DNA of 64,000 nt, taken from positions 32,001 to 96,000 of IMG/VR virus record IMGVR_UViG_3300046004_000518. One strand, given 5' to 3'. A program made the position numbers and the translations under genes. The notes below the pieces were generated by a model, which worked only from the letters and a program-made list of their open reading frames with translations, had not been told where the DNA came from and made no database searches. This document shows positions 8,122-59,892 of this stretch, in pieces. How positions within the stretch are numbered: the first letter of the stretch is position 1; each line of letters opens with the position of its first letter. This DNA is from a virus.

Positions 8122-10431
8122 TTATTCTACTATAATAAAACCTTCATCGTCAACTGTTTTGTTTTCTAATAAAATCAGTTCATCTGTTGGTTCAACTACA
8201 ATAAACTCTATTGCATCATTGACATAGTCTGCTGTAACTGCACTACCAATGGCAATATTTTCAAACAGTATTTTCTTACTTAATGGCACTTTAATTAGCT
8301 CACTAATCTTACGTGCTAGTGGACGTGCGCCCATTGCACGATCAAATCCAACTTCAACTAAGTGATCAACTAATGCTTCTGTTGAACGTAGTTTAATTTG
8401 TTTCTCTGCTAGTAATTCGTTAAGCTCGTTTAAGAATTTAACAACAATCTTCTTCATGCTAATCTTATCAAGTCCATTGAACTTAACTACAGCATCTAAA
8501 CGATTGCGGAACTCTGGTTTAAAGAACTTTTTAACAGCACTATCATCTTCGCCTGTTTTTTGTAAGTCGCGCCCAAAGCCAATGTTGTTTTGCTCATTGT
8601 CTGCTGAACCTAAGTTACTGGTTAATACTAACATAGCATTACGACAATCCGCTTTCTTACCATTGGATCCAGTAATAGTACCTTCATCCATGATCTGTAA
8701 CAATAAGTTACTAATGTCGGGGTGAGCCTTTTCAATTTCATCTAACAAGATAATTGAATGTGGATTACGCTCTACTTCACTGATTAACAAGCCGCCACCT
8801 AAGTTACCATCTTCGTAACCAACATAGCCCGGAGGAGCACCAATAAGTTTAGCCATAGCATGTTTCTCTTGATATTCACTCATATCAAAACGTATTAACT
8901 TCATGCCTAAGTTTTCACTAAGCAATTTAGCTAACTCTGTTTTACCTGTACCAGTTGGGCCTAAGAATAAGAAATTACCAATTGGTTTGTTATGTGCTTT
9001 TAATCCAGCTTTAGCAACATAAATCTTCTCAAGTACTGCATCAACTGCGGTATCTTGTCCGTATAGTTTATCTTTAATGTTACTTTCTAAACTTGGTAAT
9101 GAAGTTGATGCATGTTTGCTATCAAAGTTTTCTTTTGGAATCTTAGTTGCTTTGGCCAAAGTATCGACAATCGCATCACCATTAACTACCCAAGTTGGAT
9201 TATTAATTTTAAGACGTGCGCAACTCATATCAATTAGGTCAATGGCCTTATCTGGTAAGCGTTTGTCTGTTTGATAGCGTACACTTAAATCAACTGCTAG
9301 TTCAATTGCTTCATCTAAAATCACACCATTGTGGAAACGTTCAAAGTGACCTTTAAGTCCGAGTAAGATGTCTTTGGCTACTTCTGGACTTGGTTCATCA
9401 ATGTTTAGTTTGTAGAATCTGCGCATTAACGCACGATCTTTTTCAAATGATTGTGTATATTCTTCATAGGTAGTCGAAGCAATAACTTTAATGCCGCCTT
9501 TGGCCAATGCTGGTTTGAGCATATTAGCAAAGTCTACACTACTTGAGCTACCTGCACCTGCGCCCTGCATTTGATGTGCTTCATCAATGAACAATATAGA
9601 ATTACCTTTGGTGTTCAGTGATTCAAGTACGTCTTTAAGTTTTTCTTCAAACTCGCCACGGTATTTGCTACCGGCTAATAAGCTACCGATCTCTAAATTA
9701 TAAACAGTATAGGGTTTTAAGTATTCTGGTACATCACCGTTGACAATTTTGTATGCCAAGCCCTCTGCAATAGCAGTTTTACCCACACCCGGATCACCAA
9801 TCATTAACACGTTGGATTTATGACGACGAGCCAGCACTTGTGCAATCTCTTCCAACTCATATTCACGACCAATAACTGGATCTATCTTACCATCAGTGGC
9901 AACTGCATTTAGATTTGTGCAATACTCTTCTAATATTGCATCAGAAAAATCTTGTTTAGCTTTTGAATCTTTGGTCTTAACTGCTTTACCATCGACAAAT
10001 TTATCGGCATAATATTTTACTAGATCTTTGCGGTTAATACCCCATTTAAGCATAAAGTAAGCGGCATGACTGTTGGTCTCTTGACTGATACTTAAGAATA
10101 AATCAACTGGTTCCATTTGCTCACGTGCTGTAAACAACACCTGCGTAAACGCACGATTGAACACACGCTCTAAACTATGGGTACGCTGCGGTACAATTTC
10201 TTTATCCGATAGGTCAACCAGATGATCTTGTTGAGCAGTATATTCGTACAAGTCTGCCAATAATGGATTAGTATCAACACCATATTCGGTTAGTAACTTT
10301 TTAAATGCTCTAAATTCGATAAGTGCAATTAACAAATGTTCAAGTGTTACGTATTCATGCCTATAATCACGTGCAAGTTCAGTTGCCGCTGCAATGATTT
10401 CTTCAATTTCGGGATTAGAATTTATTGCCAT
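8122..10431 (-). CDS. clpA: ATP-dependent Clp protease ATP-binding subunit ClpA-like
   Basis: N-domain HEYVTLEHLL; two AAA+ modules (GDPGVGKT, FIDEAH; GPTGTGKT, RFDMSEY, LLDEIEKAHP); IGF ClpP-docking loop; no ClpB middle domain. Confidence 0.93.
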   Translation of the reverse strand: MAINSNPEIEEIIAAATELARDYRHEYVTLEHLLIALIEFRAFKKLLTEYGVDTNPLLADLYEYTAQQDHLVDLSDKEIVPQRTHSLERVFNRAFTQVLFTAREQMEPVDLFLSISQETNSHAAYFMLKWGINRKDLVKYYADKFVDGKAVKTKDSKAKQDFSDAILEEYCTNLNAVATDGKIDPVIGREYELEEIAQVLARRHKSNVLMIGDPGVGKTAIAEGLAYKIVNGDVPEYLKPYTVYNLEIGSLLAGSKYRGEFEEKLKDVLESLNTKGNSILFIDEAHQMQGAGAGSSSSVDFANMLKPALAKGGIKVIASTTYEEYTQSFEKDRALMRRFYKLNIDEPSPEVAKDILLGLKGHFERFHNGVILDEAIELAVDLSVRYQTDKRLPDKAIDLIDMSCARLKINNPTWVVNGDAIVDTLAKATKIPKENFDSKHASTSLPSLESNIKDKLYGQDTAVDAVLEKIYVAKAGLKAHNKPIGNFLFLGPTGTGKTELAKLLSENLGMKLIRFDMSEYQEKHAMAKLIGAPPGYVGYEDGNLGGGLLISEVERNPHSIILLDEIEKAHPDISNLLLQIMDEGTITGSNGKKADCRNAMLVLTSNLGSADNEQNNIGFGRDLQKTGEDDSAVKKFFKPEFRNRLDAVVKFNGLDKISMKKIVVKFLNELNELLAEKQIKLRSTEALVDHLVEVGFDRAMGARPLARKISELIKVPLSKKILFENIAIGSAVTADYVNDAIEFIVVEPTDELILLENKTVDDEGFIIVE

Positions 10432-10443
10432 TTTTAGTCCTTG

Positions 10444-11277
10444 CTAATTAATTGTTTTAAGTATTTGTATCTGTGCCGCGGTTAATGTTGGTGTTTTAAT
10501 TATTGTATTAACAATTAAATCACCTCTATATTGAGTATTCATTTGATATAAGCCTTTACCTTGTAGACCAAACTTAGTACCAAATTGACATCCTACTGGA
10601 ATCTTAATTAAGTACGTACTACCATCAATTCCTTCTACTTCTTTTTCTGTGCCTGTCATTGCTTCAATTGAGGAAATTTCTAAATTACTAACTAAATTAA
10701 CACCGTGTATCTCAAAACGTGGATCATCGATTACATTAATAATAACATACAGATCACCCCTTGTCAATGATTCAAAGAAGTTGTCACCCATTTGTGTATA
10801 TTTAATCGTTGTACCATTACTTACACCGCGCGGCATTTTTACATCTACATTAAATTTATCATTCTTGGTAGTCTGTACACTTACTGTTTTTTGCTGTTCG
10901 ATTAATGTACTGGCAAGGGTAACAGTTATATTAATACGTAGGTCTTTATTACGTCTTGGTTGTTGCTGTTGGAAAGGGCTACCACCACGTTGACTAAAGA
11001 ACTGACTGAATATATCCTGTGGGCCACCACCACCAAAATGAAATTCAAATCCACCAGGCCCACTGCCGCCTGCACCGAATGGATTGGGATTATCATGTTC
11101 TTGTCTTTTTTGTGGATCAGTTAAGGTGTCGTAAGCACCCTGTATCTCTTGAAACTTAGCAGTATCGCCGCCTTCTTTATCAGGATGATGTTTAGCAGCG
11201 AGCTTACGATAAGCCCGTTTAATTTCTTCGTCTGTGGCGCCGCGATGTACGCCTAGTGTTGAGTATGCATCTGTCAT
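10444..11277 (-). CDS. dnaJ: DnaJ/CbpA-type J-domain co-chaperone (no Zn finger); likely start MTDAY at 11277
   Basis: J domain with HPD, G/F-rich linker, C-terminal GDLYV/GDLIV domains. Confidence 0.88.
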
Positions 11278-11284
11278 AATAGTT

Positions 11285-11313
11285 ATTATATGTGAAAAAA
11301 GGAGAATTGTCAA
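11285..11313 (-). promoter_or_regulatory. sigma70 promoter for dnaJ (probably leaderless mRNA)
   Basis: TTGACA-17-TATAAT, with ATG 7 nt after the -10; the -35 sits in the loop of the upstream terminator. Confidence 0.75.
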
Positions 11314-11329
11314 GCTCTCCTTTTTATTT
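11295..11329. terminator. Intrinsic terminator ending the lysis operon
   Basis: aaaaaaggaga...tctccttttt inverted repeat with U-tracts on both strands. Confidence 0.7.
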
Positions 11330-11349
11330 ACTATCAAAATTACATATGG

Positions 11350-32658: not shown

Positions 32659-32874
32659 TTATTTCCTATATACGATTCTTGCTTTGGTTAAGTCATATGG
32701 TGACATCTCAATGTCCACCTTATCACCGAGAATAATTTTAATAGTAAACTTGCGCAATTTTCCACCGATGTATGCTATCACGGTATGATTGTTTTCTAAT
32801 TTAACTCTGAACATGGAATTGCCTAGTACTTCTTCGACTACTCCACTGAATTTTAAGACTTCTTCTTTTGCCAA
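32659..32874 (-). CDS. infA: Translation initiation factor IF-1
   Basis: MAKEE...FRVKLEN...GDKV[17 protein letters not shown]. Confidence 0.95.
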
Positions 32875-51863: not shown

Positions 51864-53775
<1,912 letters not shown>

Positions 53776-54289: not shown

Positions 54290-55392
54290 TTTACAGGGTA
54301 CGTAGCTTCAGGTTGTGCTAACTTGAAACCGCCTTTGCCATGTTTGTTATAGGTAAGGATTAACCCGCTTGTAACAACTTCAGGGTGCCCTGCTAGTGAA
54401 CCAAAGTGATTAATATACTGTGCCTTAAAACCAGTAGTTTCGTCGTGTACTACATCAGCCGGACCATAGTTACTTTTAAGAATGTTACCTAATTCAACAT
54501 CAAACGCTGGCGGTAACAATACGCCTGTGTCTAATTCTGTTCGCTGATACAACCGTGCCATACTAAGCATAACAATTGGTTGAATTTCTTCTTTAGGCCA
54601 AGTGGTGCGAAAAAAGTTTAGTGCTTTTGCCAAGTAAAGTCCTTTAAGGCTTGAACTAGCTTGTAAGAGATTATATGCTCCGTATAAGTGATTAATATGG
54701 CTAATGTCACCTGCTTTGGAACTAGTACGACGAATTCGTACATTGTTAGTATCACAAATCGATTGGATTCTTGTGGGTTCTTCGTGGCCACAATCAACAC
54801 CAATCATGTGTGCGTCATATAAACTCAGTTCACGCTTGCCGCTCTTGTTAATAGTAATCATACTGTTACCAGCATGGCTAATTAGAATCTTTGTTGCTTC
54901 CTCTAAAGAATGTGTGTCATCAATTTGAGCTTCGGTGTACCATACAGGCATATGAGTCCAACCCTGACGTTCACATACTCGAGTAGTGTGATGGCCATCC
55001 CAAAACAAAAACTTGCCTGAAATTGGATCTTTAATGGCGCATGGCACAATAATCGTTTCTGTTTTGAATAATGATTCAATTTTAGCAATATGGTTTGGCA
55101 TAACGTCACGTTGGAAACGTGGATTAATAGCAATATCGTCCATGGCTACCCAAGCAAATTTAGGAACATTAAGTTGTCTTGGGTCAACAGACAAGCGTAG
55201 AGCAGGCGCTGGGCCAACTACAGCGGCTACTGCTTCACCGATATCCTTGTTAGGGATAATACCGTTAGGATAGTTTTCAGACATGACCCGAAGATCAATC
55301 GCTGTATCATCGATTTCAAATTTAGTAGCAAAAGGTGCTAAAAATTTAGCAATACGTTGTTCTTTAAGTTTTGTTTTACTAATCTTAGCCAT
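54286..55392 (-). CDS. ParB/Srx-like (DGQHR-like) domain protein
   Basis: INPRFQRDV...FWDGHHT motif pair. Confidence 0.6.
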   Translation of the reverse strand: MAKISKTKLKEQRIAKFLAPFATKFEIDDTAIDLRVMSENYPNGIIPNKDIGEAVAAVVGPAPALRLSVDPRQLNVPKFAWVAMDDIAINPRFQRDVMPNHIAKIESLFKTETIIVPCAIKDPISGKFLFWDGHHTTRVCERQGWTHMPVWYTEAQIDDTHSLEEATKILISHAGNSMITINKSGKRELSLYDAHMIGVDCGHEEPTRIQSICDTNNVRIRRTSSKAGDISHINHLYGAYNLLQASSSLKGLYLAKALNFFRTTWPKEEIQPIVMLSMARLYQRTELDTGVLLPPAFDVELGNILKSNYGPADVVHDETTGFKAQYINHFGSLAGHPEVVTSGLILTYNKHGKGGFKLAQPEATYPVK

Positions 55393-55427: not shown

Positions 55428-55455
55428 ATTATACACTCTTTTATAGAATTGTCAA
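55428..55455 (-). promoter_or_regulatory. sigma70 promoter
   Basis: TTGACA-16-TATAAT. Confidence 0.7.
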
Positions 55456-55457
55456 GC

Positions 55458-55487
55458 AAAAAGAAAGCCCACCGAAGTGAGCTTCCT
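55458..55487 (-). terminator. Intrinsic terminator of tmRNA
   Basis: AGGAAGCTCAC-TTCG-GTGGGCTTTC-TTTTT on minus strand. Confidence 0.85.
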
Positions 55488-55850
55488 ACTAGTTTTGATT
55501 ACAAGGTATAGTTACCCCGTGGTGTTTGTTTCTTAGGCAAACGTTGCTGTTTTAGTAGCAGAACCGAAGCGGAAGCCACGACCCATAGATACTTTTACAG
55601 CACCAGTTGTAGATGTTTTTGCATTTACAAGATTTTGTATTTTACGTGACCCCACGTGTTGAGTTGTTATCCTATCTCACGCTGTCGAAACCTGGTCAGG
55701 CCCATCAGAAGCATACTATCTCGCTAAAGACATAATCCTTACGGGACCTTAGTGACAATATACTTTTGGTGGACCTGGGCGGAATCGAACCGCCGTCCAA
55801 CATGTATTACTTTACAACTTTGCCTTACGGCTACAACAATTTCTTTAGTA
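55488..55850 (-). ncRNA. ssrA: Circularly permuted (two-piece) tmRNA; outer ends approximate
   Basis: Acceptor piece ends ...GACGGCGGTTCGATTCCGCCCAGGTCCACCA (CCA at 55767). It lies upstream of the coding piece, which starts GGGCCTGACCAGGTTTCGAC at 55703. 7-bp acceptor stem with G3:U; tag frame 55622-55533. Confidence 0.9.
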
Positions 55851-55858
55851 CTAGTGTA

Positions 55859-56062
55859 TTACACTGGTACAATATTCGAAGCTTGCTTGCCCTTAGGACC
55901 TTGTGTTACTTCAAACTTTACTGCTTGGTTTTCTGCTAGTGTTTTGAAACCTGTGCTCTCAATTGCTGAGAAGTGAGCAAATAAATCCTCACCTCCTGCG
56001 TCTGGAGTGATAAATCCAAAACCTTTTGAATCCGAAAACCATTTTACTTTACCTGTTGCCAT
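55859..56062 (-). CDS. cspA: Cold shock protein
   Basis: GKVKWF, KGFGFI (RNP1), LFAHFSAI (RNP2), GPKGKQA. Confidence 0.95.
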
Positions 56063-56798: not shown

Positions 56799-57107
56799 TT
56801 ATGCAACTATACCCACCCGTGCTCGAATTGCTTCTAAACTGATTGCCGGCTTAGTAACCCTAACAGTATTATATTTCTCATCCGATAGGTTAATTGCTTC
56901 TGCATATCGAGCTGTCTGCATTAAGTCAGTGGTTTTAAGATACGCAACCACTCCTGCTTTAGTCAACGGAGCCGCTAGTTCAATTAATTCGATATCAGTA
57001 TGACCTGATTTAATTAACATCTTAACTCGACTAACAAAATCATTAGCAAAGCGTACTTTGGTAACGCCATTTAATGTTGAAACCCCTGCTACTTTAAATA
57101 AAGACAT
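56799..57107 (-). CDS. Hypothetical protein
   Basis: FKVAGVS...KVRFAND...GHTDIELIEL. Confidence 0.7.
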   Translation of the reverse strand: MSLFKVAGVSTLNGVTKVRFANDFVSRVKMLIKSGHTDIELIELAAPLTKAGVVAYLKTTDLMQTARYAEAINLSDEKYNTVRVTKPAISLEAIRARVGIVA

Positions 57108-57588: not shown

Positions 57589-57978
57589 TTATGCGACCCA
57601 CCCTTGACCAGTAATTTCATGTAGCCACGGATAAAAACTAGGAATCCGCATAGTCCACTCACCGTTAAAATTTAAGTAACTGGTAGTAGGTTTTGCTACA
57701 GTATCCTGATATAAAGGAATAATTTCGTGGCCGTCAATAATAACTTTAACTTCTACTGCTTCTGGATGCTGGCGTGTTACAATAACCTTAATTTCAATAG
57801 GACCATCAATTGGATAACCTTTAACTAGGATTGATTTATTACTATCTAATAGCCCATCGTGTACTACCTGCCCATTAATCAAGGCCACACAAACACACTT
57901 ATCAACAGGTGTTAGTATTAACTCTATAATAGAAGTTAATTGAGGTTTAATAGCCGTAGCTTCTGAGAAATTCTTCAT
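57589..57978 (-). CDS. Hypothetical; likely start MKNF at 57978
   Basis: ORF overlapping the end of the radical SAM gene. Confidence 0.6.
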   Translation of the reverse strand: MKNFSEATAIKPQLTSIIELILTPVDKCVCVALINGQVVHDGLLDSNKSILVKGYPIDGPIEIKVIVTRQHPEAVEVKVIIDGHEIIPLYQDTVAKPTTSYLNFNGEWTMRIPSFYPWLHEITGQGWVA

Positions 57979-59272
57979 ATTCCGGTAAATGATCCAATAT
58001 ATTATTGTTGTGTACTTGTTCAAATGCCTTGGTAAACTTAACTAGATTCGCACGTTCTTGTTCGCAGTCTAAGGGCACCTGTATAGCTTCTAAGAGCTGT
58101 TTATACTCAAAGATTAAGTTGCTGATCACAGGTCTTACAAGGTCTTCTCTACGGCGATTAATTATGGTTTCATTCGGAACCAAACTATGCCGTTGGATTA
58201 CTTGATCTAATTTTGCTACGGCAGTCTTACGTAGATCATTGGGCAACAGTTCAATGCGCAGGCAAGTGGGATCGCTAAGAATATTGCAACTTTCAGCAAT
58301 AACGCCATTGACCAACATGTACTCAAACACTTGATCTAAATGATATATGGTATAGATGCTAGGTGTAATACGTAAGGTAATTTGTATGCCTGTAGAATCA
58401 CGTAGTGCTAGAAAACGATCTAGATTATGTTTAACTTCATCAATCTTACTTGGATAGCGTATATAATCGTTTAGTGAGTCGAATGTTTCTATACTAACGC
58501 CTAGATGAAACTGTTTAAACTCACTTATAATATCAGCAAGTTCATCACTGTAGATAGTACCATTGGTAGTAATGCCCACAATGATATCACGGCTAATACC
58601 TGCGGCAATTAATGCTGAACATATACGATAAAAGCTCTTTAGATAAAGTGTTTCTCCACCTAAAAAGTGTAGATACTTAAGACCTTTTATTTCTATTAAC
58701 TCAGTAACAAACTTATCTACTAACTCATCATTGTCTGACCAATTCTTAAAACGATCATAGGTTTTAAAAATTGTAGGCTCAATAGCTGTTAACTGTTCAT
58801 ACTCTTTAGTTAGACGACTGCTGTAGGTAGGATTACACATGATACAGCTACTATTACAAGTATTACCTAGATCAATTTGAATATCAACTGGCGTGCGATT
58901 GATTTGCCCATCATTCTTATACGAGTAATTAAAATTTGACCAATGCGGACTGCTGACAAATGTCTTATTAAAGTTATCTACAGTAACAGCACTTTTCAGT
59001 AGTTGCCGTTGACGACCACTAACTTTATTATGCTGATCTTCGTAATAACAGCCCTGGCATTCTGTACTAGGAATACCGGATAGTTGCTGTGTACGAAACG
59101 CACACATTGTAGGACTGTTCATAAACTCTGCAATTGATGTGTCGCAGATATTGTAATCACTTTGCCCGTCACCTGGTCGCCATTCACTCATCCAACGACA
59201 GGGAATGTAATAGCCTGCTGGCGTTATTCTAAAGTGGAACCAAGGACTGGAGCAAAATGTATCTTTAAGCAT
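57947..59272 (-). CDS. Radical SAM protein with N-terminal SPASM/twitch-like Cys cluster
   Basis: CNSSCIMC (CxxxCxxC), GGET, TTNGT, YIRYPS; N-terminal FCSSPW...PC...CQGCY. Confidence 0.88.
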   Translation of the reverse strand: MLKDTFCSSPWFHFRITPAGYYIPCRWMSEWRPGDGQSDYNICDTSIAEFMNSPTMCAFRTQQLSGIPSTECQGCYYEDQHNKVSGRQRQLLKSAVTVDNFNKTFVSSPHWSNFNYSYKNDGQINRTPVDIQIDLGNTCNSSCIMCNPTYSSRLTKEYEQLTAIEPTIFKTYDRFKNWSDNDELVDKFVTELIEIKGLKYLHFLGGETLYLKSFYRICSALIAAGISRDIIVGITTNGTIYSDELADIISEFKQFHLGVSIETFDSLNDYIRYPSKIDEVKHNLDRFLALRDSTGIQITLRITPSIYTIYHLDQVFEYMLVNGVIAESCNILSDPTCLRIELLPNDLRKTAVAKLDQVIQRHSLVPNETIINRRREDLVRPVISNLIFEYKQLLEAIQVPLDCEQERANLVKFTKAFEQVHNNNILDHLPEYEEFLRSYGY

Positions 59273-59892
59273 TAACGTTTCGTAATAACTTCGTCGGCTA
59301 AACCGTAGGCCACTGCTTCATCTGCTGACAAGAATGTATCAAACTTCATTGCTTCATATAGTTCGTCGTACGTTTTACCAGCAGTATTGTGACGTGCATA
59401 TAACTCTGTTAGACGTTTGTTAATGCGCACACTTTCTTCAAAGCTACGTTTAGCATCTTCAAATTGTAGGTCTTGTACGTGTACACTACCACGGGTGCCC
59501 GGAGTACCTGAACTAACACGGTGAATCATTGTACGTGCTTCTGGTAGGACAATACGCTTGCCTGGCGCACCTGCTTGCGCTAGGAAGCTACCCATTGAGC
59601 AGGCTTGACCAAGTACAATAGTTGATACATCACATTTGATAAACTGCATTGTATCATAAATTGCTAGGCCAGCAGTAACACTGCCACCTGGACTATTGAT
59701 GTAGAACAAGATATCTTTCTCTGGGCTTTCGCTTTCTAAGAACAGCATCTGTGCCACGATTAAACTAGCAGTATGCTCGTTAACATCAGTGTCCAACATG
59801 ATGATACGATCTTTAAGTAAACGACTATAAATGTCATAGCTACGTTCGCCTTGACTTGTACGTTCTACTACCATTGGGACTAAAGTTGACAT
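59272..59892 (-). CDS. clpP: ATP-dependent Clp protease proteolytic subunit
   Basis: [38 protein letters not shown] (Ser), MIH (His). Confidence 0.95.

Follow-up and report, generated by a model that had tools for sequence, protein, structure and literature searches.

A two-piece tmRNA with a long, peptide-conserved tag near clpP and groESL in a jumbo-phage clade

The tmRNA gene and its neighbours

The 64-kb stretch of DNA analysed here (the window) is part of an IMG/VR viral contig of 110 kb with an estimated completeness of 28%, and ARAGORN reports a single RNA gene in it, a permuted tmRNA (tmRNA*) at 55442-55859 on the minus strand. Two Rfam models align to the same gene, RF04321 (tmRNA_permuted) with 84.4 bits against a cut-off of 47, and RF01850 (beta_tmRNA) with 84.6 bits against a cut-off of 84; together with ARAGORN they place the whole permuted tmRNA at 55819-55462 (minus strand). 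The alignments and mapped motifs confirm the permuted order, in which an acceptor piece (55819-55767) comes first and a coding piece (55703-55462) follows. The acceptor piece carries the P2 3′ strand (55819-55798), the T arm (55794-55778), and the acceptor 3′ strand with an encoded ACCA (CAGGUCC-ACCA, 55777-55767); the coding piece begins with the acceptor 5′ strand GGGCCUG (55703-55697) with the P2 5′ strand next to it, and contains the PK1 region (55657-55644) ahead of the tag ORF, a hairpin after it (55518-55503), and an intrinsic terminator hairpin at its end (55487-55462). The tRNA-Ala-like domain is complete, with G3:U70 (GGGCCUG with CAGGUCC), T arm, discriminator A, and CCA, and the two pieces are joined by P2 pairing of CAUGUUG with CAGCGUG. 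The window RNA is a genuine, structurally intact two-piece (permuted) tmRNA, and because G3:U70 is present, charging by the host AlaRS is to be expected. The 63-nt segment between the CCA and GGGCCUG (55704-55766, minus strand) differs in length and sequence among relatives and is presumably excised during processing, by analogy with known two-piece tmRNAs.

The RNA shares its permuted order, G3:U70, P2 pairing, PK1, and UAAAU|GCA resume context with the betaproteobacterial two-piece tmRNAs (RF01850/RF04321). It differs from them in its tag, since those tmRNAs, and many phage ones, have short tags of the ANDE(K/R)FALAA type, whereas the window tag has 29 residues with an internal module. Permuted tmRNAs with a T arm and acceptor 3′ end identical to those of the window phage are found on Cupriavidus contigs, and the exact T-arm/acceptor sequence matches only these and a few MAGs; such a match fits a betaproteobacterial origin, but does not pinpoint the host. 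The Cupriavidus tmRNAs (L297-L301 and L304) encode the tag ANDEKFALAA, and in one strain four contigs have the 25-nt match, a pattern suggestive of copies in prophages or mobile elements.

A cspA-like gene (67 aa, 55859-56062, minus strand) ends exactly at the start of the tmRNA gene. Upstream of it, at 56129-56101, there is a promoter-like site, TTGACT-17-TATTAT with a preceding TG; from this arrangement it is likely that cspA and the tmRNA are co-transcribed, and the tmRNA may be processed out of the cspA transcript. Other members of the tag family described below have, at the cspA position, a small protein with a signal-peptide-like N-terminus. On the other side, a perfect sigma-70 consensus promoter (TTGACA-16-TATAAT) lies directly after the terminator hairpin (55428-55487, minus strand) and serves a conserved 368-aa gene; similarity to related phages starts right there. 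Tracking synteny through this gene proved unhelpful, as the seven relatives that have it together with its neighbour have no adjoining tmRNA and similarity to them ends at 55392; the tmRNA block is better followed from clpP. Megablast and blastn searches of the region against isolated phages gave no useful match.

The first-pass annotation had listed ClpA with an IGF loop, ClpP, GroEL/GroES, DnaJ, IF-1, and CspA in the window, and all of these are present. The ClpP gene (59272-59892, minus strand; PF00574, E 5.4e-65) shares its strand with the tmRNA, which it precedes by 3.4 kb, and the Ser-His-Asp triad of its product is intact (sequence contexts GQACSMG, MIHR, and FDTFLSA). Compared with bacterial ClpP structures, the protein carries 12 additional residues following the catalytic His. 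The ClpA-like protein (769 aa, 8122-10431, minus strand) can be aligned over its full length to E. coli ClpA (1ksf, E 1.6e-189); it has two AAA+ rings with both Walker sets, KYR and GYVG pore loops, IGF at the position of the E. coli IGL, the loop for docking on ClpP, and no ClpB middle domain, the features that define the ClpA class. GroEL (51864-53504, minus strand) is about 2 kb downstream of the tmRNA, next to GroES (53482-53775, minus strand), and DnaJ and IF-1 are at 10444-11337 and 32659-32874; GroES, DnaJ, IF-1, and CspA are named from characteristic motifs in their translations. The window contig has no second AAA_2 protein, no ClpS, and no SmpB.

Several genes near clpP were considered as candidates for a ClpX or for an adaptor. 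The 441-aa gene after clpP is not a ClpX and instead encodes a radical SAM/SPASM protein (57947-59272, minus strand); its start overlaps the clpP stop, it follows clpP in most family contigs, and its domains are in an inverted arrangement, with SPASM (residues 7-76) ahead of the radical SAM core (135-290), which usually comes first. The f1 gene (102 aa, 56799-57107, minus strand) is conserved in the interval from clpP to the tmRNA in all 13 of 13 family loci and has 468 metagenomic homologues, with no Pfam or PHROG family; its confident AlphaFold model (pLDDT 88) gave no usable match with Foldseek against the PDB or in a wide VIA search (best Z 3.5). A role for f1 as a tag-specific adaptor was dropped, as f1 is also present in phages with other tags (G043, G028, G042, and G003), and it is spread over the whole jumbo-phage clade irrespective of tag type. 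Two further genes between clpP and the tmRNA, f3 and f8, have signal-peptide-like N-termini as judged by eye, which makes a cytoplasmic adaptor role unlikely.

The tag and its conservation as a peptide

The tag ORF occupies 55533-55622 on the minus strand. ARAGORN, the Rfam alignments, and the translation agree with the earlier reading of TAAAT GCA followed by 29 codons: UAAAU|GCA aligns at the resume site of both RF04321 and RF01850, the resume codon GCA is at 55622-55620, and the stop codon TAA is at 55535-55533. The peptide also has the composition first described for it, with no Asp or Glu, five Lys or Arg residues, and the C-terminal residues TFA (ATFA). This end departs from the C-terminal L/V-A-A with free carboxylate of ssrA C-motif-1, which is recognized by ClpX, and the N-terminal part, AKTSTTG, does not resemble the AANDENY-like (ANDE-type) SspB site. 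The E. coli ssrA tag is bipartite, with an N-terminal part that contacts the SspB adaptor or ClpA and a C-terminal LAA; the window tag has neither the AANDENY-type site nor the LAA. No SspB was found in the large related genomes searched, and ClpS is present in the clade. The tag peptide has no match among PDB sequences. A likeness to the lambda O degron for ClpX, TNTAKILNFGR (NT.K ... GRG), is marginal against shuffled sequences (p 0.02-0.06) and is retained as a lead only.

A scan of viral contigs for the acceptor 3′ end returned 72 loci, and at 58 of these there is a permuted tmRNA; the tags are mostly ANDERFALAA-like, and six are long and basic with the sequence KVSMGRGFRF, which in the window lies at 55566-55595 (minus strand). 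Eighteen viral contigs contain the DNA of this core, and a search of 185,579 bacterial and archaeal genomes found none with it; a back-translated pattern of the core has matches in 23 viral and 30 metagenome contigs. The family totals 27 distinct tag ORFs encoding 24 distinct peptides of 28-30 residues, and KV(S/T)MGRGFRF is common to all 27. In the collections scanned it is found only on viral and metagenome contigs, with phage origin checked for part of the metagenome fragments. Two scans with half of the core found no tmRNA that has just one half, in the second scan among the matches listed.

Comparison of the 27 ORFs shows that the tag is kept as a peptide with its frame intact. All indels in the alignment are of 3 nt or multiples of 3, and the same frame is found in so many distinct ORFs from other contigs that chance is not a plausible explanation. 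Within the core the only variation is at six third-position synonymous sites and at one codon that is Ser TCT, Thr ACT, or Ser AGT, the two serine forms being a switch of codon family; in the tail, the window and L060 differ at one position where Lys AAA stands against Arg CGT. By the Nei-Gojobori method the core has a pN/pS of 0.13, a value biased downward because the sample was drawn partly with the back-translated pattern. The ratio is 0.62 both in the N-terminal part and in the four codons at the tag end, and 1.74 in the linker that follows the core. We conclude from these alignments that selection acts on the tag peptide.

Conservation of the core could alternatively reflect the RNA, with the core kept for translational or structural reasons (a helix-5-like structure, efficient resumption, or an anchor for recombination) and the peptide functionless. 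The tag region does form a long, helix-5-like hairpin in all members, with a few compensatory outer pairs; synonymous sites are slower in the core than in the flanks (pS of 0.15 as against 0.22-0.47), and N-terminal parts and tails are shuffled around an identical core. However, every change in the core preserves the peptide, including the serine codon-family switch, and the tag region has a weak consensus structure (-5.8 kcal/mol, with a covariation term of only -1.1 kcal/mol). The inner hairpin is likewise weak and rich in G-U, and the pairing partners of the core vary between members, so RNA structure does not account for the invariance of the core, and we regard an explanation from the RNA by itself as very unlikely. 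The slower synonymous sites nevertheless indicate that some nucleotide-level constraint, codon preference, or recombinational homogenization acts as well.

The C-terminal ends fall into five classes, AVAA (10 ORFs), ALAA (5), AVLA (5), ATFA (5), and ALAV (2), all of them closing with nonpolar residues and Ala or Val. The ATFA tail in a tag with no acidic residue is found in the window and in four other distinct tags from several metagenomes, and its presence in five distinct tags shows a sublineage that has been maintained, as opposed to the decay of one copy. The ATFA end is confined to 5 of 27 ORFs, and escape from host ClpXP, which the first-pass annotation had proposed for the window tag, does not hold for the family, in which 15 of 27 end in ALAA or AVAA; because most relatives keep A(L/V)AA, it is a sublineage trait at most. 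The non-canonical, strongly basic window tag also invites the view that tagging frees ribosomes without degradation, the truncated proteins being sequestered or harmlessly released. The tags of close relatives that share the core finish with the classical degron, ALAA or AVAA, and all tails still combine nonpolar residues with Ala or Val, and this view seems to us highly improbable.

The extended tag is not the only one in this tmRNA lineage. A tag-blind scan with the shared PK1 sequence as query yielded 51 viral contigs. Their tags contain the basic module KV(S/T)MGRGFRF, a second module, A(N/T)ADT(F/Y)DFSAMSFTGN(T/S)V, that precedes ANDSRFALAA or similar ends, or a third, ANANTFEYFQVPV-type module, or else they are short and canonical. 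The phage tmRNA lineage has therefore repeatedly lengthened its tag, each time with a module placed before the usual degron. The second-module and ANANTFEYFQVPV-type families (L019, L074, and L107-L140) are each peptide-conserved across many contigs.

Linkage to clp genes and who might read the tag

The tmRNA lies in a block of similar gene order in the family. In the window and in all 20 other family contigs tested (21 of 21), ClpP precedes the tmRNA on the same strand at a distance of 1.3-4.9 kb, and GroEL is 0.5-5 kb downstream in 18 of 18, whereas ClpP was found in 3 of 17 contigs with other tags. The usual order is a DksA/TraR-like zinc finger (named from its Cys-pair motif), ClpP, the radical SAM protein, small ORFs, and f1, then a protein with a signal-peptide-like N-terminus, the tmRNA, and GroES/GroEL. 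Seven family contigs with a length of 90 kb or more have ClpA-like genes, the complete 329-kb genome G014 among them, and no such gene was found in the family contigs G008, G012, and G022 (94-104 kb). ClpS is encoded in five of five large genomes, three with family tags (G014, G010, and G021) and two with other tags (G043 and G028), and neither SspB nor Lon was found in five large related genomes. None of 37 related contigs searched, complete genomes included, has SmpB; the rescue step therefore depends on the host, and the earlier idea of a rescue private to the phage does not hold for this step.

The boldest part of that idea was a closed circuit, in which the tag evades host ClpXP and SspB and is read specifically by phage ClpA and ClpP. 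Several observations are in its favour: the phage ClpA has its IGF loop and intact pore loops, ClpP is intact and always within 5 kb of the tmRNA, the window tail has neither LAA nor acidic residues and belongs to the ATFA class maintained in five distinct ORFs, and no ClpX was found in the window contig or in the complete genome G014. However, A(L/V)AA is kept by most of the family, and the linkage of clpP to the tmRNA, firm as it is, does not extend to co-variation of the tag with clpA and clpP, which had been put forward as a check. The complete 323-kb genome G028 encodes ClpP, ClpA, a ClpX-like protein, and ClpS, yet has a canonical 12-residue, LAA-ending tag, ANDSVFDIKLAA; G043, with the second tag module, has ClpP, ClpA, and ClpS, not adjacent to its tmRNA; and the Pseudomonas jumbo phage PA5oct has the same Clp genes with no tmRNA at all. 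PA5oct is the closest cultured relative (ClpP 64.5% and ClpA 43.5% identity); it resembles the window clade in having DnaJ beside ClpA, ClpS, and a chaperonin, and differs from the window phage in having ClpX and FtsH and in lacking a tmRNA. The Clp set is thus a trait of the clade, its co-occurrence with the tag is confounded by common descent, and we see no co-variation beyond that descent. ClpS in E. coli blocks ClpA from ssrA substrates, and because the phages encode ClpS, ClpAP is not favoured as the reader of the tag. Given also that SmpB is supplied by the host, we consider a circuit closed within the phage to be unlikely.

A simpler account leaves the reading entirely to host proteases (ClpXP, ClpAP, Lon, or FtsH), with the phage Clp proteins and chaperones forming a syntenic general proteostasis island and the core serving as a spacer or as an enhancer for a host adaptor. 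The dominance of canonical ends in the family agrees with it, as do the clade-wide distribution of the Clp genes independent of tag type and the absence of Lon and SspB from the phages. There is also a precedent in the long Mycoplasma ssrA tag, which according to Gur and Sauer (2008), as cited in PMC8403727, is read by Lon; the Mycoplasma/Mesoplasma tag is described there as 27 residues long, with internal residues that matter and a specificity switched away from ClpXP. Lon-directed tags of this type are recognized through aromatic residues, internal as well as C-terminal. That tag and the phage tag are both unusually long, but the likeness is one of length and of the FA end only, the sequences being unrelated, and there is no Lon in the phage clade; for the phage tag, retargeting is a candidate only. 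Against reading by the host alone, an invariant 10-residue module absent from 185,579 prokaryote genomes is hard to explain as a spacer, and host tags of the same tmRNA lineage are short, ANDE(K/R)FALAA-type peptides. We think this account possible, although on balance doubtful.

A two-part degradation signal as the favoured reading

We lean towards the reading that this is a working two-piece tmRNA whose peptide-selected tag acts as a two-part degradation signal, and we infer the role of the tag as a degron, that of its module as a binding site, and the identity of its reader. The phage would be a jumbo phage of roughly 330 kb and freshwater type, with a tmRNA derived from the betaproteobacterial two-piece lineage. 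Once charged by the host AlaRS, the tmRNA would be delivered by host SmpB and EF-Tu, as the phages encode no SmpB, and would rescue ribosomes that stall during infection, adding a tag of 28-30 residues. The layout of the tag may be read as an N-terminal A(N/K)xxT, the invariant KV(S/T)MGRGFRF, a variable linker, and a nonpolar end with Ala; a Clp-type unfoldase would act on the C-terminal end, while a second contact, for an unfoldase or for an adaptor, could be provided by the internal module, by analogy with the residues of the E. coli tag that contact SspB and ClpA. In the sublineage of the window, A(L/V)AA would have changed to ATFA with loss of the sole acidic residue, a change that probably weakens ClpX-type recognition and shifts the tag to another reader.

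A more far-reaching form of the two-part signal has KV(S/T)MGRGFRF as a virus-evolved second degron or adaptor site that directs the tag to phage ClpAP(S), or away from host ClpXP/SspB, with LAA given up in the ATFA sublineage and an orthogonal tag-and-degrade pathway built on host rescue; we judge this form improbable. A module that serves as a recognition site would make this a natural case of a virus re-addressing the quality-control tag of the cell, and would supply a compact new degron-reader pair for protein-degradation tools; if the module is a mere spacer, this would be an ordinary phage tmRNA.

Phage tmRNAs, two-piece ones included, have been published previously (PMC4131195, PMC7162821, PMC9004378), and 53 two-piece tmRNAs have been counted among 18,146 phage genomes. 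The tmRNAs of Melnitz (a phage of OM43) and of pelagimyophages (PMC9004378) and of huge phages (PMC7162821) are similar to the one described here in being phage-borne with SmpB mostly supplied by the host, and differ in that neither extended, peptide-conserved tag modules nor a fixed clpP-tmRNA-groESL arrangement is described for them; our literature search found no paper on this tag family or on the fixed clpP/groESL arrangement. The usual view of phage tmRNAs is that they are host genes, borrowed together with host-like tags. In this jumbo-phage clade the tag has instead been rebuilt, with lineage-specific, peptide-conserved modules before the usual degron, and the gene is part of a fixed ClpP-GroES/GroEL block.

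We note finally that in L088 and L090 (for example at L090:3854-3900) the resume context UAAAUGCA is duplicated in frame, 15 nt apart, so that the tag could begin at either site and have 30 or 35 residues.
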